Notes: generated by a model from the sequence alone, not told the origin. Counted from the stretch's first letter, positions 1 through 12,426 are shown. The stretch: 64,000 nt of DNA from Bacteroidales bacterium (GCA_017430365.1 JAFRNC010000009.1:161804-225803); one strand, 5' to 3'. Numbers and translations: made by a program.

Positions 1-1430
1 GGACCGTATCTCTCCTCGACTTCCCTGTATTTATCCGGGAGCAGGGTCTCGTGAGCCCAGGATTCGTATTGTTCACGGCTGAGCCAGACCGGGTGGGATT
101 TCTTCAGGAAGTCAGCCTGTGCTCCGGGGGCGTAGGAGCCCATGACGCTGCCTTCGCGGTGGACCATTCTTCCGAAAGCCTCCTCTGTGGCCGGCAGCCC
201 GCTGACATCGTATCCTTCGCTGCGAAGACGTAGCAGGAATCTGTAGATCGACGGGATAACTTCCATGCCGCTTGCGAGCAATGCGTCCTTGCCCGGCGAC
301 TTGAAATAGCATATTGCCACATGCTTGTCGCAGTTGGGCATGGTCCGCAAGGCCATGTAACGCGAGAAATATTCCAGGAAAGCGTCGATCCTCTCCTTTT
401 CAGGGGTGTAAAGGAAGAATCCCGATTCGCCCTCGTTCTGGGTCGCAACGCAATAATTGCCTATGCCTCCATCGATTTCCGGAACCACCACACGTGCGGT
501 GAGTGTGCCGCTGCTCACGGGCAGGAGCGGGTTGATCCAGTCGCTGTGGGGCTGTATAAGCGGGAAAGGATTGAAAAGAGGAATGTTTTCTTCGTGCAGC
601 CAATTGATGAAATCGTCGTTTCCAAGCCGCCCCATGGGCATATAGATCACCGCGTCGGGATGCAGGCTGCGTATCATTTCCTCCCGGGTTTTTCCCTCAG
701 CTGTCAGTGGATAGACATTGTATCCGGCACCGGTCATGCGCGATATCAGGGTATCGACATGGGCACGGTTGCCTTCCATAGGGAAGTTGAGGCCGGAAAT
801 GAAGAGGATCTTTCCGCCGCCTTCATGATATAGGCCTTTTTCGCGCAGATACTCCGTTACGGCTTCGTGGGTAGGGAAATACTTTCCGTATTCCCGGTGG
901 TAATACATGTTTTTCAACAAAGGCACGGGAGGGTCGCAACTGCGGTCCCCGACCCTGAGCGGGGTGGCGATGCTGCGCAGGTAGCGCAGCCCATTGCGGT
1001 AGTTGCCGGCGCTTGGGTTCCGGAAATACTCCGAGAGCGTCTGACGCTGCGCTTCCGTGATGTTGCATTGTACATCGACGTGCTGGTTGTTGAGGGTGTT
1101 GGTGAATACGGCCGTGCCCCGTCGCCCGGCTTTTTCCAGGGCGGCGACCTGCCCGTCGTCAAGATAGAGTCCGCGGCTGAAGATGAAGACCGCGTCGATG
1201 CCCCTCAGACTCCGGCCGTCTTCCTTGACCTGATCGGCATTGGAAAACTTCAGGCGGATACGCCGGCTGTCGTTGTTCAGGGCCACGTCGGCCTGCTGGG
1301 CGAGAGTGGCGTTGATCACAAGGATACGGGTCGGCCGGAGGAATACGAACCAGGCCACCGCTGCCAGAAGGATGACTGCGGCGGCAATCAGGACGGATTT
1401 GCGGATACGGCTAATCCTTTCCTGCGGCAT
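1..1430 (-). CDS. CobN/Mg-chelatase-like large protein (HmuS-like), N-terminal ~476 codons; the gene runs off the left edge
   Basis: Absent from the ORF track because there is no stop in the window. My reverse-complement translation from the ATG at 1430 stays open to position 1: MPQERISRIRKSVLIAAAVILLAAVAWFVFLRPTRILVINATLAQQADVALNNDS ... PDAVIYMPMGRLGNDDFINW ... WAHETLLPDKYREVEERYG. It has an N-terminal TM anchor. The start overlaps the cbiK stop by 20 nt. The + strand ORFs 321..833 and 867..1451 look like antisense shadows. The family call rests on context and recollection of CobN-like HmuS proteins. Confidence 0.65.
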   Translation of the reverse strand, partial: MPQERISRIRKSVLIAAAVILLAAVAWFVFLRPTRILVINATLAQQADVALNNDSRRIRLKFSNADQVKEDGRSLRGIDAVFIFSRGLYLDDGQVAALEKAGRRGTAVFTNTLNNQHVDVQCNITEAQRQTLSEYFRNPSAGNYRNGLRYLRSIATPLRVGDRSCDPPVPLLKNMYYHREYGKYFPTHEAVTEYLREKGLYHEGGGKILFISGLNFPMEGNRAHVDTLISRMTGAGYNVYPLTAEGKTREEMIRSLHPDAVIYMPMGRLGNDDFINWLHEENIPLFNPFPLIQPHSDWINPLLPVSSGTLTARVVVPEIDGGIGNYCVATQNEGESGFFLYTPEKERIDAFLEYFSRYMALRTMPNCDKHVAICYFKSPGKDALLASGMEVIPSIYRFLLRLRSEGYDVSGLPATEEAFGRMVHREGSVMGSYAPGAQADFLKKSHPVWLSREQYESWAHETLLPDKYREVEERYG

Positions 1431-2316
1431 AAGCCTCTTTCTTCTTCATGATGTCCACGGGTGCGTGGTGCAGGCTGAAGCGGATGTGTTCGATGTAGAT
1501 GTCCTGTATTTCAGGGATTTCGCCCATCCCTTCCAGACGGCAATCCACCTGGAAGCCTTCTGACTCGAGCGCTTCCTTCCAGTCGACTGCAATGTCGTTG
1601 GAGGCGTGGTCTCCTGCAACGAAAAGCAGGGGGACGAGCGTCACTTTCTTCGCTTTGGCCATCTTGAGCCTCTCGCACATGGTCCCGAATGTCGGGTATC
1701 CTTCGATTGTGGCAACATGGAAGAGCGGATTGCCCTTTGCAGAGAACATATAGTCAATCTGGCTGTATGTCGCCGTGGCGGGTGTATAGGTACCGTGTCC
1801 CACAAGTACTACATGCGCCTTCTGGCGGGCGTCAGCCGCATCGGCGTGCCTGGCGGCCATTATTCCGACCACCTTTTCACAGTCTTCCACATTGTACAAC
1901 AGAGGGGATCCCACTCTTATTTCCTTGAAGAAACCCTCCATGGCAGCAACATCGCGACGGAGTGATTCCATTTCGGCCCCGTCGAGCAGCGTCGTGCTCT
2001 GGACGATCACATGGGTAAATCCGTCTGCGCGGAGCCGGAGCATCGCTTCCAGCGGGGTCTGCTTCTCGATGCCGCGTTCCTTAAGCCTGCGGATGACGAT
2101 GCGCGAGGTATAGGCGTCCCTCAGGGTTAGTTCGGGGAATGCGGTGCGGGCTTTGGCATTTATGGCTTCGATGGTCTTTTCCCGGGTTTCGTCGTACGTG
2201 GTGCCGAAATGGACCATGAGCAGTGCGGCCTTGTCGCCGGTGAAATTACTTTCTTCCTGGCCGTAAACGGCGAAAGCAGGGAAGAGCATGCAAATAATCA
2301 GGAGGATTTTTTTCAT
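1411..2316 (-). CDS. cbiK: Sirohydrochlorin cobaltochelatase-fold protein CbiK with a signal peptide (periplasmic type)
   Basis: 301 aa. Signal peptide MKKILLIICMLFPAFAVYG. CbiK His motifs VLVGHGTYTP and LLFVAGDHASNDIA. It lies directly upstream of, and overlaps, the CobN-like gene. Confidence 0.85.
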   Translation of the reverse strand: MKKILLIICMLFPAFAVYGQEESNFTGDKAALLMVHFGTTYDETREKTIEAINAKARTAFPELTLRDAYTSRIVIRRLKERGIEKQTPLEAMLRLRADGFTHVIVQSTTLLDGAEMESLRRDVAAMEGFFKEIRVGSPLLYNVEDCEKVVGIMAARHADAADARQKAHVVLVGHGTYTPATATYSQIDYMFSAKGNPLFHVATIEGYPTFGTMCERLKMAKAKKVTLVPLLFVAGDHASNDIAVDWKEALESEGFQVDCRLEGMGEIPEIQDIYIEHIRFSLHHAPVDIMKKKEAYAAGKD

Positions 2317-2414
2317 ATCTTACAAATATAACGATTTTGGCGTCTGATTGTGCCGTGGCCTTCGGCAGTTTCCGGGAAATGCCTTATCTTCGCAGAAAGT
2401 AAAAATGAAGGGAT

Positions 2415-3089
2415 ATGGATATTCTCGAGGCCATCAGTGCACGGCATTCCGTGCGTAAGTATCTTGACCGTCCTATAGGGACGAAGGAACGTGAAATCAT
2501 TCAGGCTGCCGTCGAACGGTGCAACGCTGAAAGCGGGCTGCATATCCAGCTGGTGCTTGACGAGCCCCAGGCTTTCGCCGCGGGTATCTGGAAATACGGC
2601 CAGTTCTCCGGCGTCAGAAACTATTTCGTCATGGCCGGTCCGAAAGGGAAGGAGGCCGAGGAGAAAGTGGGCCGGTATGGTGAGGAGCTGGTATTGCTGG
2701 CCCAGACCCTGGGCCTGAATACATGTTGGGTCGGGCTTACCTACAGGAAGATACCGGGAACATTCACCATTGCCGACGGCGAGAAGATACATTGTGTAAT
2801 CTCGCTGGGCTACGGTGCGAACCAGGGTGTGCAGCATCCTCTCCGTCCCAAGGAGAAGTTTTATGAGGCGGAAGGAGAAACGCCGGAATGGTTCCAGAAA
2901 GGCGTTGAGGCCGCCCTGCTTACCCCCACCGCCGTCAACCAGCAGAAGTTCAAGTTCATCCTCGGCCCCGACGGAACCGTCGAGGCGATATCCCTTTTCT
3001 CTTTGATGGGCTATACGTCCATCGATCTGGGCATAGTCAAATACCATTTCGAACAGGCTGCGGGGAAGGAAAATTTCCGGTGGAAATAG
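2415..3089 (+). CDS. Nitroreductase-family flavoprotein
   Basis: 224 aa. The N-terminus MDILEAISARHSVRKYLDRPI is typical of the nitroreductase family. It is divergent from cbiK. Confidence 0.75.
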   Translation: MDILEAISARHSVRKYLDRPIGTKEREIIQAAVERCNAESGLHIQLVLDEPQAFAAGIWKYGQFSGVRNYFVMAGPKGKEAEEKVGRYGEELVLLAQTLGLNTCWVGLTYRKIPGTFTIADGEKIHCVISLGYGANQGVQHPLRPKEKFYEAEGETPEWFQKGVEAALLTPTAVNQQKFKFILGPDGTVEAISLFSLMGYTSIDLGIVKYHFEQAAGKENFRWK

Positions 3090-3116
3090 CGGAAACAGGC
3101 TTGTTGTCCCGTTTTT

Positions 3117-3227
3117 CGCTGCAACGGACACACTTGACAATCAGCCGATTACAACAGGTGATCCCCCTCAAAACGAGGGGGATCACTTTACATAAATAAC
3201 TGAATGCCAGATGCGTACATTGCAGCG
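3117..3227. repeat. 111-nt nested palindromic intergenic element, copy A
   Basis: Runs CGCTGCAACGGAC ... GTGATCCCCCTC-AAAAC-GAGGGGGATCAC ... GTACATTGCAGCG. It sits between convergent genes (nitroreductase and a TonB-dependent receptor). Three further copies of the same length are in the window. Confidence 0.9.
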
Positions 3228-3239
3228 AAAAAATGATGA

Positions 3240-5609
3240 TCAGAACTTGAAACCGACCGTAATCATGAAATGACGGGGTTTGGCGGGGCGGGTTGCGCTG
3301 ATGAAATATTTCGTGTTGAAAATGTTGTACAGGTTGCCGCCGAGCGTGACACCATTCCTGAGGGTGTAGAAAAGACCGCCGTCCACAATGAAGGTCGCGG
3401 GGAGATAGATGTTGTTGGTGATGTTTGTATACCGCTTGTCGGTATAGTTTCCGTTGATGTGGAACGAGAGGTTCTTCAGGGCGCCCGTCATGATGGTGTA
3501 ATCGGCGAAAGCGTAGAAGGTCGTGCGCGGGAAGTTGGTGGCGCGCAGGTTGATCGTACCGTCTTCGTTATAGGTGACCCATGTGGCGTCTTTCGGAATC
3601 CAGTCAAGGTAGCTGGCTACGGTACGCATGTCCGAAACGGCAAGGCCGCCGGTGAATTGGAAGCCCTGGAAAGGACGGAGGGTCAGATCGAGGTCAACGC
3701 CTTTTGAAGTCTGCTTGCCCACCTGGGCGCGGACGCTCTTGTTGATGACGGATCCGTTTTCTTCGACAGGTTTGTTGCCGATGGTCCTGACAACGTTATA
3801 TTTCCGGATGTAGAATACACTGGCGTTGACGTCGAGCCAGTCTGCCAATTCGTAGCGTACGCCGAACTCTCCCTGATAACCCTTCTCCGGCTTGAATACT
3901 TCTCCGCCGGCTTCATCGGGATTGAATTCGTTGCCGTTGCGGTCGATGTAAATGTAATTGGGGTTATAGACCGTGGTGTTGGGTTTGAAATAATTTGCTA
4001 CGGAGCCATAGAACGAAAGGGGCTCCACCGGCTGCCATACCAGTCCCAGTTTATAGGTCAGCGCACCGGTACGGGTCTCTTTCCATGCGGCGCGGTCTGC
4101 CTCTTCATAATGTTGCCTGCCGTCCTTGATGGTGGCTGAAGCATTCTGGTAGTGATAGAAATCGTAACGGAGTCCCACCATCGCCTTGAGTTGCTTGCTG
4201 AATGCGATGACATCATGAAGATAGATGCCATTCGTGATGTAATTGCGGATAGCCGCAGCCGAGACCTTGCAGTCCCACCAGTCCCGCACTGTGTGAGGAT
4301 CCTTGAGCGAAACTATTTCACCAAGGCCGGGACCCCAGACGTCGTCGTTGTTGTATCCGTTGTACTGGGTATAGTTGAAGAACTGATATGTCCAGCCGAA
4401 GTTGTAGTTGTGATTCAGGTTTCCGGTATTGAACTTTCCGCCCAGTTCCAGGACATTGGTGTAGTTGTGGCTGTCGGGGTTGAAGCAAAGCGGAGAGCCT
4501 GACTTGACGTTTTCAAGGTCAATGTAGGTAGTGGCACCGTTGCGGGTGTTGATGTAATACCAGTCATAGATCGGCTGGGTGCTTGTAGGATAGCTTACGT
4601 TCTCGACGCACCAGTAATCCAGGTCGCTGTGACCGTAGTTGAAACGTTCGCGAAGCGTCATCCAGTCAGTGATCTTGTGGGTATAGTTTAGCGAGACATC
4701 TATGACCCGGCGCTGCATATGGTTGTTGGCATTGTCGTTGAGAGACAGGTCGTAATCGAAGAACGGGTTGCGTTCACCGCTCTTCTTGAAGATCTGGCCA
4801 CCGGCCGTAAAGACGTCCCCGGGCATGACCGGTGCTCCGCCGATGTCTGTGGTGTACCGGTCGTCGTTGAAAGAGACGACACCTTCAAGGTATCCGTTGT
4901 CCGTAATTGCTGTCCCCAGGGTGAACAGGCCGCTGAAATTGTTGACGTTCACTTCGCGATAGCCGTCGCCGTTGGCGTAGTGCACGTGTGCACGGTAGTT
5001 GACAGGCCCTATCAGTTTGCCGCCGAAACCGACTGTCGCTTCTTTCTGGTTCCAGCTGCCGAGGCTGATACTGGCGTTTACGGTCTGCTGCGGTGAGGCT
5101 TTCTTGCGCACGATATTGATGACACCGCCCATTACGGAGTGGCCGCTGAGCACGGACGAGGGACCCTTGAGTACTTCGATGGATTCCACCGATGAAAGGT
5201 CACTGAACGGAACGTTGTTGATCAGGGAACGCTCGTCGCGGATGCCGTCCACTGCAATGACGGCGTCTGTGGTTCCCCGGATGCTGTATCGTTTGAATGC
5301 ACCGAGTTGGTCGGATGTCTGTACGACGCCCGGCAGATATTTCACTGCGTCTTCAAGTTGCAGGATATGGTTGCGTTCCAAAGTCTTGGCTTCTATGCGG
5401 CTGACCGTGATCGGAAGGTCCTTGATGGGGACATCGAGGTTGAGCAATTTTACCTGGTTGTCCTGCAAGGGACGATAATAATAATCATAGATGGCTGCGC
5501 TGTCAAGCGAAAACACGGAGTCGACCATGCTTTTATGGCGCTCAGGCTGTTGGGCCGATGCTGTGATGGCGCATAAGGTACAGATTGTAAGCAGAATGGT
5601 TTTTTTCAT
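3240..5609 (-). CDS. TonB-dependent receptor, siderophore-receptor-like
   Basis: 789 aa. Signal peptide present. Plug motifs VESIEVLKGPSSVLSG and GGVINIVRKK. Terminal beta-strand is ...MITVGFKF. The start overlaps the PepSY gene stop (ATGA). Confidence 0.9.
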   Translation of the reverse strand: MKKTILLTICTLCAITASAQQPERHKSMVDSVFSLDSAAIYDYYYRPLQDNQVKLLNLDVPIKDLPITVSRIEAKTLERNHILQLEDAVKYLPGVVQTSDQLGAFKRYSIRGTTDAVIAVDGIRDERSLINNVPFSDLSSVESIEVLKGPSSVLSGHSVMGGVINIVRKKASPQQTVNASISLGSWNQKEATVGFGGKLIGPVNYRAHVHYANGDGYREVNVNNFSGLFTLGTAITDNGYLEGVVSFNDDRYTTDIGGAPVMPGDVFTAGGQIFKKSGERNPFFDYDLSLNDNANNHMQRRVIDVSLNYTHKITDWMTLRERFNYGHSDLDYWCVENVSYPTSTQPIYDWYYINTRNGATTYIDLENVKSGSPLCFNPDSHNYTNVLELGGKFNTGNLNHNYNFGWTYQFFNYTQYNGYNNDDVWGPGLGEIVSLKDPHTVRDWWDCKVSAAAIRNYITNGIYLHDVIAFSKQLKAMVGLRYDFYHYQNASATIKDGRQHYEEADRAAWKETRTGALTYKLGLVWQPVEPLSFYGSVANYFKPNTTVYNPNYIYIDRNGNEFNPDEAGGEVFKPEKGYQGEFGVRYELADWLDVNASVFYIRKYNVVRTIGNKPVEENGSVINKSVRAQVGKQTSKGVDLDLTLRPFQGFQFTGGLAVSDMRTVASYLDWIPKDATWVTYNEDGTINLRATNFPRTTFYAFADYTIMTGALKNLSFHINGNYTDKRYTNITNNIYLPATFIVDGGLFYTLRNGVTLGGNLYNIFNTKYFISATRPAKPRHFMITVGFKF

Positions 5610-7030
5610 ACTTTGATGTTATTGTTAGGTCTGATGTGTTTCTTCCTGAACAGTTTTCTGATACCGCGGGCAATCCATTTGACGCTGAGTACGATACCGG
5701 TGACGGAAAGTGCGGTACCGCCGATCATCAGTGTGTACATGACGATATTCCAGAGCCACGGGCGGTCGGTAAGGAACTTGAAGTCCAGTGTATGTAGTTT
5801 GTGGTAGAGCCAGTTGCGAGTGCGGGTGTCATCGTCGAACCGACGGGTTTCCAGGGTGACAGGATTGTAGTACCAGCGGGTGTGCATATAGTCGTCTACG
5901 ATGACGCGGTATACGGGAAGCGAGGTTTCATTGACTTTCCGTGTATGATAGTCGCGGTCGAATTCATCGATCAGCTCGACCGTGTAGGGAATGCTGTCGC
6001 GGTACTGCCGCTCCATATCGAGGCGTACCATGTCTTCGGTGATGACAAATGGTCTGACCCCGTCTGCCTGGGCATCGATGAATACGCGTTCCGTCGGGGA
6101 GATAGTCAGGGTATAATAGGGATGTCCTTTGAATTCGCTCCAGGCTAAAGTCCGGGTATCCGGATATGCTGCCAGTGCTGTGCGGTAGTCCAGTGTGTAA
6201 AGACCGGGATCAAAATAACGGGATTCGCCGCGGCGTCCGTCGGGCGGCCCGTTACGTTGCTCGGTTTTCGGCGCTTTCTTCAGGAATTCCGGCATGTCAG
6301 CCAGCGACATCATGCCGCTGAAGGCGAAAGTAATGGCGAAAATGCCGAAAGAGAAACCGAGGATGTAGTGCCAGTTATACCACTTCTTCTTATAAGGGGC
6401 CGCCTTTTTTTTGCTCTTGACGGCCACGCGGATGGCAAGGACGAAGCCCAGGATCACCATAATGCAACCTATGCCGGCCGCCCATTTCACTGAGTTCAGC
6501 CAGAGTTGCTGTTCCTGCCGGAGTTTCGTGAAATATACCCAGTGGGGTATGGCGCCGACCCAGGCCCACATGCGTTCTTTGTGCGAAGTGAACTGCAGCA
6601 CCCGGCCTGTCTTGGAGCCCAGATAAAGCTGATGTCGCTCCGGATCGTCAAAATGATACTTGTAGATTGGAAGCTCTTCCCGGTTGCGACCGAAAGGAAT
6701 CCATTGGTCCAGCTTTTTCAGCGTGTCGATACGTGCCACCGGAGCTGTGCACCAACTGCGGATGGTGGCTTCAAGGGTGTCTTCTACGGGAGTGAACGTC
6801 CGGGCGGAAATCGTCCGGTCCCGTTGATTGGCAAGTATTTCCGTAAGGTTGTCCTTGTCGGGCAGTTCCACCGTGACGAGCGGAGGCAACAACGCCAGTT
6901 GCTTGTCAGCGGACGCACGGGGGAAACCGTGATATATCATCACGATACCCGTGGAGAACCATAGGAAGAACAATCCACACAGTAATACTCCCAGCAACTT
7001 GTGCAGGAAAGAAAGTATTTTGTACAACAT
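5606..7030 (-). CDS. PepSY-associated TM helix protein (PiuB-like)
   Basis: 474 aa. N-terminal TM segment LLGVLLCGLFFLWFSTGIVMIYHGFPR, further TM helices mid-protein and at the C-terminus. This architecture is typical of PepSY_TM proteins encoded next to TonB-dependent receptors. Confidence 0.8.
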   Translation of the reverse strand: MLYKILSFLHKLLGVLLCGLFFLWFSTGIVMIYHGFPRASADKQLALLPPLVTVELPDKDNLTEILANQRDRTISARTFTPVEDTLEATIRSWCTAPVARIDTLKKLDQWIPFGRNREELPIYKYHFDDPERHQLYLGSKTGRVLQFTSHKERMWAWVGAIPHWVYFTKLRQEQQLWLNSVKWAAGIGCIMVILGFVLAIRVAVKSKKKAAPYKKKWYNWHYILGFSFGIFAITFAFSGMMSLADMPEFLKKAPKTEQRNGPPDGRRGESRYFDPGLYTLDYRTALAAYPDTRTLAWSEFKGHPYYTLTISPTERVFIDAQADGVRPFVITEDMVRLDMERQYRDSIPYTVELIDEFDRDYHTRKVNETSLPVYRVIVDDYMHTRWYYNPVTLETRRFDDDTRTRNWLYHKLHTLDFKFLTDRPWLWNIVMYTLMIGGTALSVTGIVLSVKWIARGIRKLFRKKHIRPNNNIKV

Positions 7031-7094
7031 GTTTTGGAATTGAATTCCAGCATACGTGAAACAGCACTGACCCGGCGCTTTTCCACCTTATTGC

Positions 7095-7240
7095 AGACAG
7101 GCAGGTCTTCTGACTCGTTCCGCTTCAAGCGTCTTCCCGGCAATAAGCCAGTGACAAAGGAATGCTTGAGGCTTCAAAGGAACATACAGCAGCGGGCACT
7201 GCTCCGGATTCACACCGGATTCCCTATTCTTTCTCAACCG
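7095..7240 (-). promoter_or_regulatory. Cobalamin (B12) riboswitch, 5' leader of the PepSY-TBDT operon
   Basis: The reverse complement reads AATAGGGAATCCGGTGTGAATCCGGAGCAGTGCCCGCTGCTGTA ... GTCACTGG ... GGGAAGACG ... B12 box AGTCAGAAGACCTGCC (plus-strand 7100-7115). It lies about 70 nt upstream of the ATG at 7030. Confidence 0.85.
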
Positions 7241-7272
7241 TGGTCACGGCTTCGAACACCTGTTTGCGGAGG

Positions 7273-7280
7273 CAAAAATA
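7273..7280 (-). promoter_or_regulatory. Bacteroidetes -7 promoter box (TATTTTTG) for the riboswitch-1 operon
   Basis: Matches TAnnTTTG on the minus strand, about 30 nt upstream of the riboswitch core. Confidence 0.5.
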
Positions 7281-7301: not shown

Positions 7302-7341
7302 AAAAAAAAAAACGCCCCGTGACCGGCTGGATCACGGGGCG
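7302..7341 (-). terminator. Rho-independent terminator of the upstream (DASS) operon
   Basis: The minus strand reads CGCCCCGTGA-TCCAGCCGG-TCACGGGGCG followed by T11. That is a perfect 10-bp GC-rich stem, 28 nt after the DASS stop. Confidence 0.8.
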
Positions 7342-7368: not shown

Positions 7369-8874
7369 CTACACCAGGTGAAGGGTGCCGAAACCATAGA
7401 GGAAGACATAGCCCAGGACTATGCTGATGACGCCGACTATCAGGCCGATCTTGGCCATGTCCTTCTGCTGGACGAGATTCGTGGCGAAGGCCAGGGCGTT
7501 CGGCGGAGTGGATATGGGCAGCACCATCGCACTGCTGGAGGCTATGGCTACGCCGATCAGTACGATGGCGGTGCCGCCGATGGGAGCAATCTTGTCACCC
7601 ATCGCGGTGCATACGACAGCCAGTATCGGCATAAGAAGTGCTGCTGTCGCCGAATTCGAAATGAAGTTCGACAGAGCGTAGCAGATCAGTCCGGAAAGGA
7701 TCAGGATCAGCAGCGGTGAGAACGAATCGAAAGGAATGCTCCTGACCAGCAGCGAGGCGAGCCCCGAGACGTTCATCGCATAACCCAGTGCGAAGCCGCC
7801 TGCCACCATCCAGATGACGGACCAGTTGATTTCCTCTAGGTCGCGCCGGTCTATCACGCCGGTCGTGCAGAAGACAGCCAGAGGAAGCAGGGCTACCGTA
7901 TAGGTATTGATGCCCGTGAACGAGTCGAGGAGCCAGAGCAGTACGGTGACAATGAAGGTCACGATGACGATCTTGGTTTTGCGGTCGCGTTTCATCTCGC
8001 CTTCGATGACCAGGTCGACGGTCTTCTGCGTGAACGGGAAAATCTTCTTGATCAGCAGCCAGCTGATGAACAGCAGCAGTATGACCAGCGGCACCATCAT
8101 CAGCATCCACTGGCCGAAACCGATGTTGAGATTCAGTCCTTCGGGATCGTTCAGGTATTTGAGGGCGATCGTGTTGGGCGGCGTGCCGATAGGGGTGCCG
8201 ATGCCGCCCAGGTTGGCTGCAACCGGGATGCTGAGGGCCATTGCGATGCGGCCCTTGCCATTGGCGGGCAGCTGTTTGAAAACCGGGGCCAGGAATGTCA
8301 GCATCATTGCCGCCGTGGCGGTGTTGCTGATGAACATCGAAAAGAGGCCGGTAATGAGCAGGAATCCCAGAAGCACCATCTCGCTCTTGTTCCCGAAGGG
8401 CTTGAGCAGGATCTTGGCCAGATGGACATCCAGCCCGGTCTTGGTGGCTGCGATGGCCAGCACGAAACCGCCGAGGAAGAGCATTATCACCGGATCGGCG
8501 AAGCAGGCCATGATACCTTTGTAGCTCAGAAGGGTGCCGACCTGGTCCGGATCACAGATCCATTTGATGCCGGAATCCGAAGCGAAGAACAGGAGCATGG
8601 CCATGATCGCGATGGAAGTGGCCCAGGCAGGGACCGGTTCCATGATCCACATGAGCGTCGCGAAGGCGAAGACAGCTATGATGCGCTGCTGGACCACCGT
8701 CAGGCCGTCGATTCCGAAGGCGCTGGCTGGAATCAGGAACAGCGTAATCGTGACGGCCGCGATGATCAGCAGGCTGGCGGTCCTTCGTTTGATCCGGCCG
8801 GCCTGGTGCTTCAACTCCATTCCCATCTGGTAGATGGACTCTACCAGATGGAAACCTGGGAAATTCTTATACAT
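7369..8874 (-). CDS. DASS/SLC13-family anion (di/tricarboxylate or sulfate type) transporter
   Basis: 501 aa polytopic membrane protein. It carries the duplicated DASS signature FISNTATAAMMLTFLAPV and FISNSATAALLMPILAVV. The start is 6 nt after the CbiK-like lipoprotein gene stop, so it belongs to the same operon. Confidence 0.8.
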   Translation of the reverse strand: MYKNFPGFHLVESIYQMGMELKHQAGRIKRRTASLLIIAAVTITLFLIPASAFGIDGLTVVQQRIIAVFAFATLMWIMEPVPAWATSIAIMAMLLFFASDSGIKWICDPDQVGTLLSYKGIMACFADPVIMLFLGGFVLAIAATKTGLDVHLAKILLKPFGNKSEMVLLGFLLITGLFSMFISNTATAAMMLTFLAPVFKQLPANGKGRIAMALSIPVAANLGGIGTPIGTPPNTIALKYLNDPEGLNLNIGFGQWMLMMVPLVILLLFISWLLIKKIFPFTQKTVDLVIEGEMKRDRKTKIVIVTFIVTVLLWLLDSFTGINTYTVALLPLAVFCTTGVIDRRDLEEINWSVIWMVAGGFALGYAMNVSGLASLLVRSIPFDSFSPLLILILSGLICYALSNFISNSATAALLMPILAVVCTAMGDKIAPIGGTAIVLIGVAIASSSAMVLPISTPPNALAFATNLVQQKDMAKIGLIVGVISIVLGYVFLYGFGTLHLV

Positions 8875-8880
8875 GGAAGA

Positions 8881-10020
8881 CTATTCCGGATTCTTGGAGT
8901 GATAGTAGTCGAGAGGCTCGCCGGCGATTGCGTCCTGGGTGTGATTCATCCAGATCTGGCGAACGGTAGGCAGTTCGAGCAGGCCTTTCTCGATCATGGT
9001 CGAGTTGTTGCAGGTGAAGCCGGAACCGTTTGCACCGAAGAAGACTTTCCAACTGCAGTCCTCTACTTCGCCTTCTTCATTGGCTTCGGCCATGAGGTCT
9101 GCGAAAGTGTAGCTCTTGCCTTCGAATTTCTCGGGCAGGTCGTCGCCGGCCATGTCGTTGTGGCCGTGGTCGCCGTCGATGGACATCAGCGGGTGCAGAT
9201 AGACTTTGCGGTTGCCGGTATTCAGGCCGGCCTCCGCCATGCGCTCATAGACATGGGGTTTGAAATTCTCCATCATGTCCACGGTTCCTACGAAGTAGTG
9301 GGGGTTGATTGCCTGCAGTGCTTCTTCAAGCTGGGAGTAGCGGACGTTGGCCTTGTATGTATCGTAGGAGTCGGGGTTGCCGTGGCCCATGAATGCGACG
9401 ATGTCGTTGGCCGCCTGGCTCTTGTAGAGATTGTCGAGGGCCCTGGCTACTGCAGAAACGTCCTTGTCCTCATCCTGGAGGAGTGGAACGCCGAGTTTCA
9501 GGACAACCCTGGACAGGTAGTCGTCATCGAGGTCGCCGTTGGCGTTGTTGGCGAAGTCCTTGATGTAGTTGATCACGCGGGTGTACTCCTCACCGGGGAT
9601 TACCTGCAGCGACTGGACAACGATTTCGCTGTACCTGACGTTTTTCTGGGCGAAAGCGGTGAGCCAGAACGGCGGGGCGTAATAGTTGCGGATTTCGGCG
9701 CCGTCGGCGGCGTTTTCACCGGCGGCCGCACGGTTGATGCAGATTGCAGAGGAGAAGGAGAGGAAGACGTCGTAGCCGGGGAATGCTTTTTTGTAGGCAT
9801 CCACGGTTGCGTCGAATGCGTTGAAGGCCTGCTGCCAGGTCGAACCGAAGGCGACCAGCAGGATAACCTTGTTGTTCTTCTTCTGCTTGTTAACCGTCTC
9901 GTTGACGGCTTTCTGGTAAGCGTTGTAGTTGTACTCCTCGTTTTCTTTCGGGTTGCAGGAAGACAATCCGAAGACGAGTCCTACCATGAGGGCAAGCGCT
10001 AAAATTTTAGTTTTCTTCAT
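8881..10020 (-). CDS. CbiK-fold lipoprotein (IhtB-like), probably surface exposed
   Basis: 379 aa. Lipobox LVFGLSSC followed by the acid-rich stretch NPKENEEYNYN. CbiK motifs LLVAFGSTW, AFMGHGNPDSYD and LHPLMSIDGDHGHNDMAGDD. It overlaps the upstream TBDT gene by 14 nt. Confidence 0.75.
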   Translation of the reverse strand: MKKTKILALALMVGLVFGLSSCNPKENEEYNYNAYQKAVNETVNKQKKNNKVILLVAFGSTWQQAFNAFDATVDAYKKAFPGYDVFLSFSSAICINRAAAGENAADGAEIRNYYAPPFWLTAFAQKNVRYSEIVVQSLQVIPGEEYTRVINYIKDFANNANGDLDDDYLSRVVLKLGVPLLQDEDKDVSAVARALDNLYKSQAANDIVAFMGHGNPDSYDTYKANVRYSQLEEALQAINPHYFVGTVDMMENFKPHVYERMAEAGLNTGNRKVYLHPLMSIDGDHGHNDMAGDDLPEKFEGKSYTFADLMAEANEEGEVEDCSWKVFFGANGSGFTCNNSTMIEKGLLELPTVRQIWMNHTQDAIAGEPLDYYHSKNPE

Positions 10021-12163
10021 ATTGTTTTGAATTGTAGTTGTTGTTTATGGTGGAATTGAATTTGTCGCTGACTTTCCTGCCCTGGTTGAACCGTACGGTG
10101 ACTCCGATGTATACGGTCGTTCCGGGCGTGGTCGTACCCAGGTGCAGGCCGTGGAGCGTACGGTCCACATAGTTGAAGATGTTGTCCACACCGGCTTCGA
10201 CCTTCCACGCGGTACGTTTGGAATGTCCCAGGTCATGACCTGTGGAGATGCGCCATATCTGGTAGCCCTTGCCGTCGCCGTCGATCTGATAGTGGCGTCT
10301 GGAGGACATACGGCCGTAAAGGCCCGCACTCAGCCGGTAGTCCGGTGAGAACCGGTGATTCCATGTGATGAAACAGTTGCCCTTGTGGTGCGCCGTACCG
10401 TCGATTGTCACCTGGCGCATCCTGTCGTGGTCTGCGTCGTACTGGTTGGCGTCCGTATCGAGCCAGCTGTACCCCAGGCCGAAAGCCCATTCCCTGAGGC
10501 TGTATCTGGCGCTGAAATCCACGCCAAGCGTCCTGGCGTCATCCACGTTCTGATACTGCCGGGTCCGTACGGGGTCGTACTGGATGATGTACTCTGCAGG
10601 CGCTTCGTAGTTCGGGATAGTCACAAGTGTGATCATGTCCTTGACACGGTTATAGTAGCCCGTGACGTTGATGCTCAGTCCGGAGAGTGTGTATTCCCCT
10701 CCCAGCGAGAAATAATCGCTGGTCTGCGGACGCAGGCCGAGGTTGCCGAGATAGAGATACGTGCCGCTCATCTGTTTGACGTAGCGGTAGTGCAGTTCCT
10801 TGGGGGTAGGGGTCTTGAAGCCCTGGCTCCAGGTGGCGCGTATGCGCCAGGGCAGGCCCAGTGCAAGCATCGCGGAGACTTTCGGGGTGACCTTGATCCC
10901 GAACTGGCCGTTCCAGGTCAGGCGCGCACCGCCGGCCAGCTGGAGCCGGTTACGACCGAAATCGTGCTGCCATTCGTCCTGGACGTAAAATGCGGCGGTC
11001 CAGTCGCTGACCGTTCCGCCGACCACACGGGTAGGGGCATACAGCCAGTCGTAGCGGTATTCGGCGCCGGTGTTCAGCAGATTGTCGGCGGGCAGCCTGA
11101 AGATGCCTTTCAAACTGGCCATGGCCCTGCGCTGGTCGCTCTGCATTTCGGTCTGGCCGGGCAGATATGGATAGTAGGGATAATAGATCGTCCCCTTGCT
11201 CTTCTCGTAATCTTCGACCAGGGTGGTGGCCGTAAAATAATACATATACGCATGCCGGTTCCAGTCCAGGTCGAGCGTCACCACGTCTGTGGCGTTGGGC
11301 TTCCATTTGGCTCCGGCAGATGCCGAGGCGTTGCGGTACTGCAGGTCGTAGGTGTGTACGTCGAACTGGGCGTATTTTCCGTTGGGACGGTAGATCCGCT
11401 TGCCGTAAATGGTACCGCCCGCATAGAGTTCCAGTTTGTCGGAAGCCGTGAAGGTCAGCTGTTCGCCCACCTGGGCGTTGGTGTGCCGGTTCACGGTCTT
11501 GTTCTGCGAGTCCATGACGGGAGCCTGGGTGCCCGTGGTATGTTCTACGGATGTATTCTGCCAGCCGTCTGAATGCTGGAGCTGGAAGTTGGTGAGTGAA
11601 CTGAGCCGGCCGTATTTCAACCCTACGGCGTTATGCTGGCGCAGGTCGTTGTAGGAGCCGTAGCGGGAGCTGTTTTCCAGCAGCAGGCCCTCTTCGTGGT
11701 GTTTCCTGGTTATGATGTTGATCACGCCGGCGATGGCGTCGCTGCCATAAAGGGCGGATGAGGCTCCTTTTACGATCTCTATCTTTTCTATGTTCTGTGG
11801 ATCTATGAGCGACAGATCGTTCTCGCCGCCCACGTCGCCGTGGATGCGCTTGCCGTCGATCAGGATAAGTATATAACTGTTGCCCAGTCCGCCGAGTTGC
11901 ATGTGCGATCCCATGTCGTCTTCGTTGAATGCGAAGGCGGAGGTAAGGCCGCCCAGGATGTCCTCCAGGGAACGCCCGGCGTAATTGTTCAGCATCTGCC
12001 GGGTTATGACTTCAGTCTGGACGGGAACGTCTTTCAGAAGATGCGTCGTGCCGGTGGCCGTGACGACGGTCTCCGGAATCGTGTCCTGCAGATACGATTG
12101 CGCTGACATGGTTACGGCTAGGCACATGGCCCAACCGATGAGCAATAACTCCCTTATCTTCAT
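10007..12163 (-). CDS. TonB-dependent receptor, BtuB-like
   Basis: 718 aa. Signal peptide present. TonB-box-like PETVVTATG. Plug motifs IEKIEIVKGASSALYGSDAIAGVINIITRK. It is the first gene after cobalamin riboswitch 2. Confidence 0.85.
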   Translation of the reverse strand: MKIRELLLIGWAMCLAVTMSAQSYLQDTIPETVVTATGTTHLLKDVPVQTEVITRQMLNNYAGRSLEDILGGLTSAFAFNEDDMGSHMQLGGLGNSYILILIDGKRIHGDVGGENDLSLIDPQNIEKIEIVKGASSALYGSDAIAGVINIITRKHHEEGLLLENSSRYGSYNDLRQHNAVGLKYGRLSSLTNFQLQHSDGWQNTSVEHTTGTQAPVMDSQNKTVNRHTNAQVGEQLTFTASDKLELYAGGTIYGKRIYRPNGKYAQFDVHTYDLQYRNASASAGAKWKPNATDVVTLDLDWNRHAYMYYFTATTLVEDYEKSKGTIYYPYYPYLPGQTEMQSDQRRAMASLKGIFRLPADNLLNTGAEYRYDWLYAPTRVVGGTVSDWTAAFYVQDEWQHDFGRNRLQLAGGARLTWNGQFGIKVTPKVSAMLALGLPWRIRATWSQGFKTPTPKELHYRYVKQMSGTYLYLGNLGLRPQTSDYFSLGGEYTLSGLSINVTGYYNRVKDMITLVTIPNYEAPAEYIIQYDPVRTRQYQNVDDARTLGVDFSARYSLREWAFGLGYSWLDTDANQYDADHDRMRQVTIDGTAHHKGNCFITWNHRFSPDYRLSAGLYGRMSSRRHYQIDGDGKGYQIWRISTGHDLGHSKRTAWKVEAGVDNIFNYVDRTLHGLHLGTTTPGTTVYIGVTVRFNQGRKVSDKFNSTINNNYNSKQYEEN

Positions 12164-12204
12164 TTTCAGCTCCCGCTTTTTCCTGAGCGGGCGAACTCCA
12201 AATC

Positions 12205-12395
12205 CGGTTCTGGCAGGTCTTCTGACTTTCCCCGGTCCGCTCCGCCTTCCCGGGCATCAGCTTCGTTCCGGCCCGGCAGACGGGGGATGGCGAAGCGCCC
12301 AGTGGCGTTTTGGAAGCGGACCCTTTACGGGGATTACAGCTGCAGGTACAGTCCCGGTCTTTCACCGGATTCCCTTGCACCGGAGCGGCCAAATG
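12205..12395 (-). promoter_or_regulatory. Cobalamin (B12) riboswitch, 5' leader of the TBDT / CbiK-lipoprotein / DASS operon
   Basis: The reverse complement reads GGGAATCCGGTGAAAGACCGGGACTGTACCTGCAGCTGT ... GCCACTGGGCG ... GGGAAGGCG ... B12 box AGTCAGAAGACCTGCC (plus-strand 12212-12227). Confidence 0.85.
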
Positions 12396-12418
12396 CCGCC
12401 CGGTTACCAAAACCGATG

Positions 12419-12426
12419 CAAATATA
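12419..12426 (-). promoter_or_regulatory. -7 promoter box (TATATTTG) for the riboswitch-2 operon
   Basis: Matches TAnnTTTG on the minus strand, about 25 nt upstream of the riboswitch. Confidence 0.5.

Follow-up and report, generated by a model that had tools for sequence, protein, structure and literature searches.

In this Bacteroidales genome a cobalamin riboswitch precedes genes for a PepSY_TM protein and a siderophore-type TonB-dependent receptor, which raises the question of what such a pair carries when it is placed under B12 control. We analysed the locus within a window of 64,000 nucleotides (the whole stretch of DNA presented, with coordinates counted from its first letter), and conclude that the pair most likely provides the enzymes that build the B12 ring with extracellular cobalt or an extracellular ring precursor.

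Organisation of the operon and its neighbourhood

The riboswitch and the two genes behind it comprise the following features:

7313..7341, minus strand: intrinsic terminator of the preceding DASS operon (12-bp stem, then T10)
7273..7280, minus strand: Bacteroidetes-type -7 promoter box TATTTTTG, read from the sequence, at the 5' edge of the riboswitch
7083..7278, minus strand: cobalamin riboswitch aptamer (RF00174, full-length model)
7031..7082, minus strand: leader, aptamer to start codon
5606..7030, minus strand: PepSY_TM protein, 474 aa (PF03929)
3240..5609, minus strand: TonB-dependent receptor, 789 aa, with signal peptide (Plug and TonB beta-barrel domains)

The covariance model search of the 64-kb window matched RF00174 at 7278-7083 on the minus strand (102.3 bits against a gathering score of 31.5 bits, E 1.8e-24, model positions 1-189), and the B12 box of this aptamer is intact. 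The -7 consensus of Bacteroides promoters is TAnnTTTG. Because the strong terminator of the DASS operon (7341-7313) lies just before the riboswitch and the -7 box is found at 7280-7273, the riboswitch heads its own transcription unit, which the terminator shields from upstream transcription. The leader at 7031..7082 contains no intrinsic terminator, suggesting that the operon is probably controlled at translation initiation or RNA stability.

The PepSY_TM gene is followed by the receptor gene with an ATGA overlap. These assignments bear out a preliminary description of the locus, which had placed a PepSY_TM protein and a 789-aa siderophore-type receptor under a B12 riboswitch, in an operon that has neither a BtuB-like receptor nor a BtuG-like lipoprotein. 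We add that the operon here consists of just two genes, and so contains no BtuB-like gene and no BtuG-like or other lipoprotein gene. The window holds two more riboswitch-controlled receptor operons, one of which is followed by btuFCD.

Beyond the receptor gene lie three further genes:

2415..3089, plus strand: TM1586-type nitroreductase (PF14512, E 3.5e-70), convergent with the receptor gene
1411..2316, minus strand: exported CbiK, 301 aa, with Sec signal peptide
3..1430, minus strand: membrane-anchored CobN-like protein of BtuS/HmuS type, 5' part, running past the window edge

An open reading frame at 2313-3140 on the minus strand is spurious, the true gene there being the nitroreductase. 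The preliminary description had stressed that the operon lies next to the secreted CbiK/CobN-like pair. The association is relevant, as a CbiK with a signal peptide is a regular member of related cassettes (56 of 75 loci), and the genes are indeed near in the genome; however, the convergent nitroreductase gene stands between them and the receptor gene, so that CbiK and the CobN-like gene form a separate unit. The nitroreductase gene, an insertion into what was ancestrally a single cassette, does not belong to the module. Downstream of the CobN-like gene, the genome encodes a membrane protein, a MotA/ExbB-like protein and a DUF2149 protein. About 11 kb of this contig (C3) contains the exported CbiK, FhuA-like receptor, PiuB/PepSY_TM, CobN-like BtuS, MotA/TolQ-like and DUF2149 families, which by family co-occurrence makes it a btuS1-type (B12-regulated hmu-like) cassette of the kind seen in Bacteroides fragilis, though one split by the convergent gene and with the riboswitch on the PepSY-receptor unit only.

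The btuS1 operon of B. fragilis 638R (BF638R_2501-2512) encodes an HmuR-like receptor, CbiK, FchA2, PiuB, BtuS1, a membrane protein, a TolQ-like protein, DUF2149, and cbiC/H, cbiE/T, cbiF/G and cbiD/J, and the same gene families in the same receptor-CbiK-receptor-PepSY order recur at two of our surveyed loci (L024 and L044). All of these pieces exist in the present genome, but as three units: riboswitch-PepSY-receptor, CbiK-BtuS-membrane protein-MotA/ExbB-DUF2149, and the cbi genes on another contig (C7). In B. fragilis NCTC 9343 an operon of this type is already known to be preceded by a cobalamin riboswitch (PMC6460266 Fig. S3; PMC10100974). This operon type has already been drawn for B. fragilis (CbiK-FchA2-PiuB-BtuS1) and never explained; the published work covered haem iron and ferrichrome only, and gave FchA2 and PiuB no function. 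By synteny, our receptor is the putative counterpart of FchA2, which is not required for growth of B. fragilis on ferrichrome (PMC5552952).

The receptor and the predicted haem reductase

In fold, the receptor belongs to the siderophore-receptor class, with a plug and a barrel of 22 strands. Its best family was the siderophore-receptor subfamily TIGR01783, at 166.5 bits and thus under the cut-off of 223.5, and its closest folds were Fiu, FhuA, PiuA and FoxA. The fold comparison left BtuB outside the top 50 matches. The preliminary description had called the receptor FhuE-like, which is too specific: FhuE (6E4V) ranked 28th, behind the four folds just named, and did not appear in sequence matches at E <= 0.001. 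We likewise rejected a BtuB identity, since the models TIGR01779 and NF007926 gave 54.8 (cut-off 599.7) and 40.5 (cut-off 836) bits, over the plug region only. The same fold class includes PqqU, a carrier of a metal-free polyanionic cofactor, and FRAP/NPNL haem-receptor boxes were found in none of 61 receptors of this type.

For the family of PepSY_TM/FoxB-type membrane reductases (PF03929, COG3182), the PepSY_TM protein gave a Pfam match over residues 9-448 (58.5 bits against a cut-off of 28.8). Its AF2 model (mean pLDDT 83.7) shows a four-helix transmembrane bundle (helices 2-34, 174-205, 216-243 and 424-465) under two periplasmic alpha/beta PepSY domains. Among 23 homologues four histidines (His34, His163, His221 and His413) never vary, and a fifth, His10, shows at least 90% conservation; each transmembrane region has an invariant histidine, and the conserved histidines, candidate haem ligands, lie at or beside helix ends in the model. 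FoxB (7ABW), which has two bis-His haems (preprint 10.1101/2021.01.28.428567), was the sole significant PDB fold match (E 5e-4, probability 1.0), but with a TM score of just 0.32-0.39, and phmmer detected no sequence similarity between the two. From these features we predict that the protein is a FoxB-like di-haem transmembrane reductase.

Several known systems likewise combine a TonB-dependent receptor of this fold class with a PepSY_TM protein, namely FoxA/FoxB of Pseudomonas aeruginosa, PiuA/PiuB and HiuABC of Caulobacter. The likeness extends to the four transmembrane helices, the two periplasmic PepSY domains and conserved histidines, which here are putative haem ligands, although global superposition with FoxB is weak. 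However, those systems are iron-regulated and handle ferric siderophores, whereas the pair described here is B12-regulated and linked both with corrin-ring genes and with a cobaltochelatase that is exported. The Bacteroides xenosiderophore system XusABC also joins a Bacteroidales receptor to a PepSY_TM protein (XusC), but has an XusB-type surface lipoprotein and iron control where our operon has no such lipoprotein and is under B12 control. A precedent for a pair that serves a non-iron metal and feeds a specific cofactor-dependent process is the copper receptor CrtA with the PepSY_TM protein CrpH in Bordetella pertussis (PMC13038864); it differs in being regulated by copper starvation, in its link to haem-copper oxidases and in belonging to another PepSY_TM sequence cluster.

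A conserved cassette linked to corrin-ring synthesis

We found 80 loci with a homologue of the PepSY_TM protein, in Parabacteroides, Tannerella, Odoribacter, Dysgonomonas, Bacteroides, Phocaeicola, Prevotella and others. The preliminary description had suggested surveying RF00174 alongside PepSY-receptor pairs, and this showed that, of 62 assessable loci in other Bacteroidales, 60 have a cobalamin riboswitch ahead of the PepSY_TM gene within one gene run, with Rfam confirming all 10 of the loci checked. The homologues are mostly accompanied by a siderophore-type receptor and an exported CbiK, and the cassette often lies directly upstream of cbiH/C/E/T/G/F/J/D. Typical orders are riboswitch, CbiK, PepSY_TM, receptor; or riboswitch, B12/haem-like receptor, CbiK, receptor, PepSY_TM, cbiHC-cbiET-cbiGF-cbiJD, this full cassette thus having a second receptor that is more haem/B12-like. 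In minimal cassettes (L005-L009, L013, L018 and L038) the siderophore-type receptor is the sole receptor, together with CbiK and PepSY_TM, while at L021, L060, L064 and L071 PepSY_TM follows a B12/haem-like receptor and CbiK without a siderophore-type receptor. The btuS1-type cassette is unbroken in L071, L024 and L044; in many cassettes BtuS is not in the operon.

Among 151 evenly sampled Bacteroidales genomes, the PepSY_TM clade occurred in 9 of 11 that were CbiD-positive and in none of 140 that were CbiD-negative (Fisher p = 6e-13), and 49 of 50 carrier genomes had CbiD. Carriers retain the steps from CbiL to CbiC, with CbiL not found in the present genome. Earlier steps are widely missing: HemB was absent from 48 of 50 carrier genomes, SirC from 49 of 51, and HemC and SUMT from 10 of 11 genomes. 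Of the CbiMNQO system, the cobalt carrier that the survey covered, CbiM was absent from all 51 carrier genomes. The cassette is thereby tied to ring synthesis in precursor auxotrophs. However, B. neonati and Dysgonomonas capnocytophagoides carry both HemB and SirC, with an exported CbiK as their only one, a combination that sits awkwardly with a model built on salvage alone.

The riboswitch linkage, the co-occurrence with CbiD and the precursor gaps together argue that the pair very probably serves corrin-ring synthesis, rather than uptake of iron or finished B12. The link between the pair and CbiD holds even where the genes are unlinked, as in this genome (C3 and C7).

All 61 cassette CbiKs carry a signal peptide, and the exported CbiK keeps the catalytic His/Glu/His of the Salmonella enterica enzyme; the copy in the window matched 2XVX (E 4e-38) and 9B86 (E 3e-29). 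No second strong CbiK/CbiX match was found in any of 11 genomes checked, making the exported protein their sole chelatase of this type; in the present genome, too, it is the one strong CbiK/CbiX gene. CbiK(P) of Desulfovibrio vulgaris and IhtB/FetB of Porphyromonas gingivalis are likewise exported CbiK-fold proteins, but in D. vulgaris a second, cytoplasmic CbiK serves B12 synthesis, unlike in the Bacteroidales carriers checked. These observations favour periplasmic cobalt chelation as the likelier arrangement.

Proposed role and competing explanations

The cargo is most likely either a cobalt complex or a sirohydrochlorin-type tetrapyrrole, supplied from outside the cell. We tentatively prefer the cobalt complex, and with similar caution propose an envelope module that supplies anaerobic B12-ring synthesis from beyond the cytoplasm, with the pair as its regulated arm for reductive uptake. 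Under a shortage of adenosylcobalamin the riboswitch would permit expression of the operon, and the receptor would take the cargo into the periplasm, the leading candidate being a kinetically inert cobalt complex such as a 'cobaltophore' or other Co(III) chelate. PepSY_TM would act as FoxB does on ferric siderophores, conducting electrons over the inner membrane by way of two b-haems and thereby reducing the cargo and freeing Co(II). Exported CbiK could then insert this Co(II) into a sirohydrochlorin-type tetrapyrrole, itself imported, probably via the haem/B12-like receptor of the full cassette, and the cobalt-sirohydrochlorin would enter the cytoplasm through some carrier to reach CbiL, CbiH and the later enzymes.

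Against a cobalt complex as cargo, Co(II) is already the stable form in anoxic habitats, where a need for reduction is not obvious. Furthermore, confirmed examples of a natural cobaltophore or of a TonB receptor specific for cobalt are lacking (PMC7689651). The fold class shared with PqqU, the cassettes that lack a siderophore-type receptor, the low FoxB TM scores and the failure to find CbiL also count against this reading.

It is possible, though we rate it somewhat lower, that the receptor instead imports the sirohydrochlorin-type tetrapyrrole, either metal-free or carrying a metal (sirohaem or nickel-sirohydrochlorin given off by sulfate reducers or methanogens, for instance), and that exported CbiK inserts cobalt arriving otherwise. 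On the periplasmic side, PepSY_TM would then provide electrons with which the CobN-like BtuS removes the metal, or would preserve the proper redox state of the substrate. This accords with carriers that cannot make precorrin-2 or sirohydrochlorin and yet retain CbiL to CbiC and an exported CbiK, with the PqqU precedent for a metal-free polyanionic cofactor, and with the presence of BtuS, a paralogue of HmuS, within the B. fragilis cassette and adjacent here. Minimal cassettes, in which this receptor stands with CbiK and PepSY_TM, suit a tetrapyrrole at least as well as a cobalt complex, since Co2+ could pass porins and an octacarboxylate tetrapyrrole, an octa-anion of ~860 Da that requires a TonB-dependent gate, could not. 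Organisms that salvage tetrapyrrole precursors, of which P. gingivalis is the classic example, are moreover an acknowledged category, though one that is mechanistically open (PMC6461909). However, every characterised pair of this kind handles metal chelates, the second receptor of the full cassette is a more natural gate for a tetrapyrrole, the haem-receptor boxes are lacking, and sirohydrochlorin, the CbiK substrate, is already oxidised, which makes a role for a reductase less direct.

We consider it unlikely that unusable corrinoids or other cobalt tetrapyrroles are taken in by the receptor for their cobalt, with PepSY_TM reducing Co(III), BtuS acting as a reverse cobaltochelatase and CbiK re-inserting the cobalt into the cell's own ring precursor. 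HmuS is considered a haem dechelatase (PMC13227078), metalloporphyrin salvage was predicted for BtuS by Rodionov et al. 2003, as cited in PMC6460266, and BtuS/HmuS-type, MotA/ExbB-like and DUF2149 proteins are encoded next to CbiK in this genome and within the cassette itself in L071 and B. fragilis. To take cobalt out of a corrin is, however, without precedent and very demanding chemically; the receptor does not resemble BtuB, and BtuS is missing from many of the operons.

An accessory route for finished cobamides or cobinamide, in which PepSY_TM would reduce Co(III)-corrinoids and aid their hand-over to BtuF, is more doubtful still. B12-riboswitch control is typical of corrinoid transporters, and the two further receptor operons of the window, one with btuFCD, fit that pattern. 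However, the clade is absent from the 140 CbiD-negative Bacteroidales, although nearly all such organisms use cobamides (96% of the phylum; PMC6461909), the BtuB models fall far under their cut-offs and the operon has no BtuG-like partner. Together with the riboswitch linkage and the dispensability of fchA2 on ferrichrome, this agrees with the original suggestion of a substrate other than finished cobalamin, for which a cobalt chelate, a corrinoid precursor and a metal-free or alternative tetrapyrrole had been named as candidates.

Finally, a siderophore-receptor fold, a FoxB-like partner and a B. fragilis counterpart named after FhuA would suit an ordinary ferric-siderophore or haem-iron pair behind a B12 riboswitch by chance, but this is very improbable given a riboswitch linkage kept across many genera, strict co-occurrence with CbiD, a TIGR01783 score under its cut-off and an fchA2 mutant that has no ferrichrome phenotype.

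A cobalamin riboswitch heads the PepSY_TM/receptor operon

Rfam recognised three cobalamin riboswitches in the window, and one of them lies ahead of a PepSY_TM gene and a TonB-dependent receptor gene, the B12-switched pair that the preliminary description had read from the sequence. This reading was upheld by the full-model riboswitch match (102.3 bits against a gathering score of 31.5, E 1.8e-24), by the PF03929 match of the first protein (58.5 bits) and by the Plug and TonB beta-barrel domains of the second. The features of the region are as follows.

7341-7313, then T10: strong terminator of the preceding DASS-transporter operon, directly upstream of the riboswitch
7280-7273: TATTTTTG, which we take to be a Bacteroidetes-type -7 box
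7278-7083, minus strand: cobalamin riboswitch of the operon
7030-5606, minus strand: gene 1, PepSY_TM protein (474 aa)
5609-3240, minus strand: gene 2, TonB-dependent receptor (789 aa) with signal peptide
3117-3227: 111-nt REPIN-like palindrome between the ends of the receptor and nitroreductase genes
2415-3089, plus strand: TM1586-type nitroreductase (E 3.5e-70), convergent with the receptor gene
2316-1411, minus strand: CbiK with signal peptide, past the nitroreductase

The upstream terminator and the presumed -7 box together suggest that the riboswitch heads its own transcription unit. Because no intrinsic terminator was found from the aptamer to the start codon at 7030, riboswitch control of the operon is probably not simple attenuation. 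The PepSY_TM stop and the receptor start overlap by ATGA, and the operon is predicted to end after the receptor. A 275-aa minus-strand ORF (2313-3140) was considered as a third operon gene and rejected, as its translation looks non-coding and matches no family, and the opposite strand carries the clear nitroreductase.

The CobN-like gene beside CbiK on the minus strand extends in the genome to a BtuS/HmuS-type protein of about 1290 aa (BtuS being the CobN-like, HmuS-type protein), followed by genes for a small membrane protein, a MotA/ExbB-like protein and a DUF2149 protein. On the other side, a minus-strand operon (7369-12426) terminates directly upstream of the studied riboswitch; it comprises a second riboswitch, a haem/B12-like TonB receptor (718 aa), a CbiK-fold lipoprotein (379 aa) and a DASS anion symporter. 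With the PepSY_TM/receptor and CbiK/BtuS genes it forms a supercluster of about 17 kb encoding envelope proteins with links to the handling of tetrapyrroles or cobalt.

The receptor is of siderophore type and its partner resembles a haem reductase

The best curated family for the receptor was the TIGR01783 siderophore-receptor subfamily, at a score below the cut-off (166.5 against 223.5), and the nearest solved sequences were PiuD, PiuA, CntO and FoxA. BtuB models aligned to the plug region only. The AlphaFold model (pLDDT 80.3) was nearest in fold to Fiu, FhuA, PiuA and FoxA; FhuE ranked 28th, the first haem receptor 42nd, and BtuB was not in the top 50. These comparisons agree with the earlier view that the receptor is not BtuB-like, and on the modelled fold "siderophore-type" appears right and "FhuE-like" too specific. 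Not one of the 61 such receptors carried the FRAP/NPNL boxes of haem receptors.

In the PepSY_TM family His34, His163, His221 and His413 are invariant and His10 nearly so. The AlphaFold model (pLDDT 83.7) has four transmembrane helices bearing two periplasmic PepSY domains, with the conserved histidines at or beside the helix ends. Its sole significant fold match in the PDB was the siderophore reductase FoxB (7ABW; E 5e-4, probability 1.0), with a TM score of only 0.32-0.39; a sequence search of the PDB returned only a chance match to a phage portal protein, so that FoxB surfaced in the fold search alone. FoxB carries two bis-His b-haems, one per membrane face, and its reduction of ferric siderophores takes place in the periplasm (preprint 10.1101/2021.01.28.428567). 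The modelled PepSY_TM protein resembles FoxB in fold, and its conserved histidines may likewise bind haem; FoxB acts on ferric siderophores, whereas the operon in the window is B12-switched. Since the receptor/PepSY_TM pair CrtA/CrpH is linked to copper (PMC13038864), the design is not restricted to iron.

The first periplasmic domain of the PepSY_TM clade contains a strongly conserved motif, D108-Q-W-I-P-F113, with conserved surroundings, which suggests a single conserved substrate or partner. Database cluster names for these proteins say only "PepSY domain-containing protein". The pair appears to be a new functional form of receptor/PepSY_TM reductive uptake; if it lets in cobalt and/or an early tetrapyrrole, it would be a third functional branch of the PepSY_TM reductase superfamily, after iron and copper.

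The cassette is conserved across Bacteroidales

The PepSY_TM protein has hundreds of homologues, and a scan of one genome per species gave 80 PepSY_TM loci, from Parabacteroides, Tannerella, Odoribacter, Dysgonomonas, Bacteroides, Phocaeicola, Prevotella, Muribaculaceae and Rikenellaceae. To find riboswitches in these loci, we seeded an nhmmer profile with those of the window and refined it in one iteration. A same-strand cobalamin riboswitch preceded PepSY_TM in 60 of the 62 loci with a traceable upstream gene run (in another 13 the run goes past the end of the locus DNA), and Rfam agreed with the nhmmer calls in all 10 loci checked, which extends to other genomes the co-occurrence posited from the window. 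The siderophore-type receptor adjoins PepSY_TM in 60/75 loci. The CbiK/CobN-like pair had been described as the operon's neighbour; exported CbiK does lie within the locus in 56 of 75 cases, but in the window the pair is split off by the convergent nitroreductase. Clustering of the ORFs gave the following recurrent gene orders.

riboswitch > CbiK > PepSY_TM > receptor
riboswitch > PepSY_TM > receptor
riboswitch > B12/haem-like receptor > CbiK > receptor of this type > PepSY_TM > cbiH-C, cbiE-T, cbiG-F, cbiJ-D (long cassette)
a form with BtuS, a membrane protein, a MotA/ExbB-like protein and DUF2149 behind

Variants were also observed. PepSY_TM stands behind the other (B12/haem-like) receptor type in several genomes, and two PepSY_TM paralogues flank CbiK and the receptor in four Tannerella loci (L030, L031, L036, L076). 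The riboswitch lies between CbiK and the receptor in loci L030, L031 and L035; none was found within the locus DNA of T. forsythia ATCC 43037 (L036). In a Phocaeicola vulgatus MAG (L052) the receptor is broken into two ORFs, and CbiK, elsewhere in the genome, into two adjacent frames, so that this cassette looks decayed. The nitroreductase and REPIN-like palindrome that stand between receptor and CbiK in the window interrupt a cassette that most other genomes keep in one piece.

The operon type has been noticed before, and the cassette itself, widely conserved in Bacteroidales, is uncharacterised. The same gene set is present in B. fragilis 638R as BF638R_2501-2512 (HmuR-like receptor, CbiK, FchA2, PiuB, BtuS1, membrane protein, TolQ, DUF2149, cbiC/H, E/T, F/G and D/J; PMC6460266 Fig. 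S3), where FchA2 and PiuB are by synteny the counterparts of the receptor and PepSY_TM. Knockout of FchA2 gave no ferrichrome phenotype (PMC5552952), and a btuS1 btuS2 double mutant grew poorly with haem as the only iron source. In B. fragilis, Meslé et al. reported a cobalamin riboswitch ahead of an hmu-like two-receptor operon, for which they suggested a role related to cobalamin (PMC10100974). Rodionov et al. (2003), as cited in PMC6460266, named BtuS and predicted metalloporphyrin salvage. We found no paper tying PepSY_TM to a cobalamin riboswitch, nor one noting an exported CbiK as sole chelatase in precursor-auxotrophic ring synthesisers.

The pair is co-distributed with corrin-ring synthesis

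CbiD, which marks the anaerobic ring pathway, is encoded in 49 of 50 genomes carrying the PepSY_TM clade. Among 151 evenly sampled Bacteroidales genomes from 149 genera, with the clade called at profile E <= 1e-60, 9 genomes held the clade and 11 CbiD; all nine carriers were CbiD-positive, and the clade occurred in none of the 140 CbiD-negative genomes (Fisher p = 6e-13). As 96% of Bacteroidetes use cobamides and very few make them (PMC6461909), a device for uptake of finished cobamides would be expected to be far commoner than this clade. The pair thus appears, from its genomic distribution, to go with ring synthesis and not with B12 use, and the proposal of a substrate other than finished cobalamin holds in its general form. 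The window's own genome has the pair on contig C3 and cbiHC-ET-GF-JD on contig C7; the two are unlinked yet both retained, which argues that the association is more than operon hitch-hiking.

Carrier genomes mostly lack precursor synthesis, and their CbiK is predicted to be exported

HemB was absent from 48/50 carrier genomes, HemC and true uroporphyrinogen methyltransferase from 10/11, precorrin-2 dehydrogenase (CysG N-terminal domain, SirC) from 49/51, and CbiM, the cobalt importer that anaerobic cbi operons usually encode, from 51/51. CbiL was found in 10 of 11 genomes; the exception was the window's own genome (98.7% complete), where this C20 methyltransferase was not detectable by HMM or tblastn. 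The cbi genes of that genome (C7:101499-107777: cbiHC, cbiET, cbiGF, cbiJD) had no detected riboswitch ahead of them.

In 11 genomes including the window's own, the cassette CbiK was the only strong CbiK/CbiX match, the latter genome additionally encoding the CbiK-like lipoprotein of the adjacent operon. Each of the 61 cassette CbiKs opens with a typical Sec signal peptide, and in the window CbiK the catalytic His/Glu/His known from S. enterica CbiK are retained. Two sources of a cytoplasmic chelatase were considered and found no support: an isoform from an internal start (a pre-domain Met occurs in many homologues but is not conserved, and is absent in the own genome's CbiK), and another enzyme, there being no second CbiK/CbiX in the 11 genomes and no CysG-N/SirC-type protein in 49 of the 51.

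The only carriers with HemB and SirC were Bacteroides neonati and Dysgonomonas capnocytophagoides; HemC and SUMT, where checked, were found in B. neonati only. The exported CbiK is the only strong CbiK match in B. neonati, and the cassette CbiK of D. capnocytophagoides, a genome outside the whole-genome chelatase search, also has a signal peptide. Sirohydrochlorin made internally in these two species would still have to meet an exported chelatase.

The missing precursor enzymes place the carrier genomes among the "tetrapyrrole precursor salvagers" of Shelton et al. and match the old puzzle of P. gingivalis, which has a corrin pathway without precorrin-2 synthesis (PMC6461909). The simplest reading of these gene inventories is that sirohydrochlorin or a metallated form would come from outside, with the exported CbiK adding cobalt in the periplasm.

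Proposed mechanism and candidate cargoes

The genomic logic of the cassette suggests that B12 ring synthesis begins outside the cytoplasm. At low B12 the operon would be derepressed, the receptor would take in a cargo required for periplasmic chelation, and the PepSY_TM protein would hand electrons to the imported cargo. Our tentative first choice of cargo is a cobalt complex from which reduction would release Co(II); every known receptor/PepSY_TM precedent favours it, as do the second, more haem/B12-like receptor of the long cassette and the missing CbiMNQO. A sirohydrochlorin-type tetrapyrrole is a possible cargo that we place second, given that minimal cassettes hold this receptor alone, that an octacarboxylate needs a TonB gate, and that PqqU, of the same fold class as the receptor, provides a precedent. 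Mining of cobalt from corrinoids via BtuS seems improbable. Accessory corrinoid uptake is more improbable still, being disfavoured by the co-distribution of the PepSY clade with CbiD and by the fchA2 phenotype, and the same two observations disfavour plain iron (siderophore) uptake, the least credible reading.

With the cobalt complex as cargo, a fuller scenario can be drawn, in which most ring-synthesising Bacteroidales would start B12 synthesis outside the cytoplasm: a sirohydrochlorin-type precursor made by other microbes would be pirated, cobalt would arrive via the riboswitch-controlled receptor and haem reductase, and metallation of the ring by the sole cobaltochelatase would be periplasmic, with later import of the product. 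We regard this scenario as a whole as rather doubtful. If it were true, the receptor and haem reductase would be the first cobalt-dedicated TonB or "cobaltophore" route (according to a recent review, no cobalt-specific outer-membrane receptor is confirmed; PMC7689651), the long-standing "enigma" of P. gingivalis, a corrin pathway that lacks precursor synthesis, would be explained, and the salvager class would gain a concrete uptake machinery.

Bacteroidales are major players in the B12 economy of gut and rumen, and many are scored as B12 "producers" from their cbi genes though unable to make the ring precursor. Were the module to admit cobalt and/or an early tetrapyrrole, they would depend on precursors from neighbours, e.g. 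sulfate reducers or methanogens, and predictions of vitamin production from genomes would need revision. A cobalt-related TonB-dependent route would then also become testable in genetically tractable species such as B. fragilis or Parabacteroides.

A further riboswitch in the genome

Outside the window, nhmmer located a fourth cobalamin riboswitch in the same genome, on contig C10 (82193-82375, plus strand, 94 bits). It runs towards nrdG/nrdD-like genes (named from N-terminal sequences only) that lie convergently on the minus strand, entering them at the 3' end, and could reflect antisense control or a strand mis-call.
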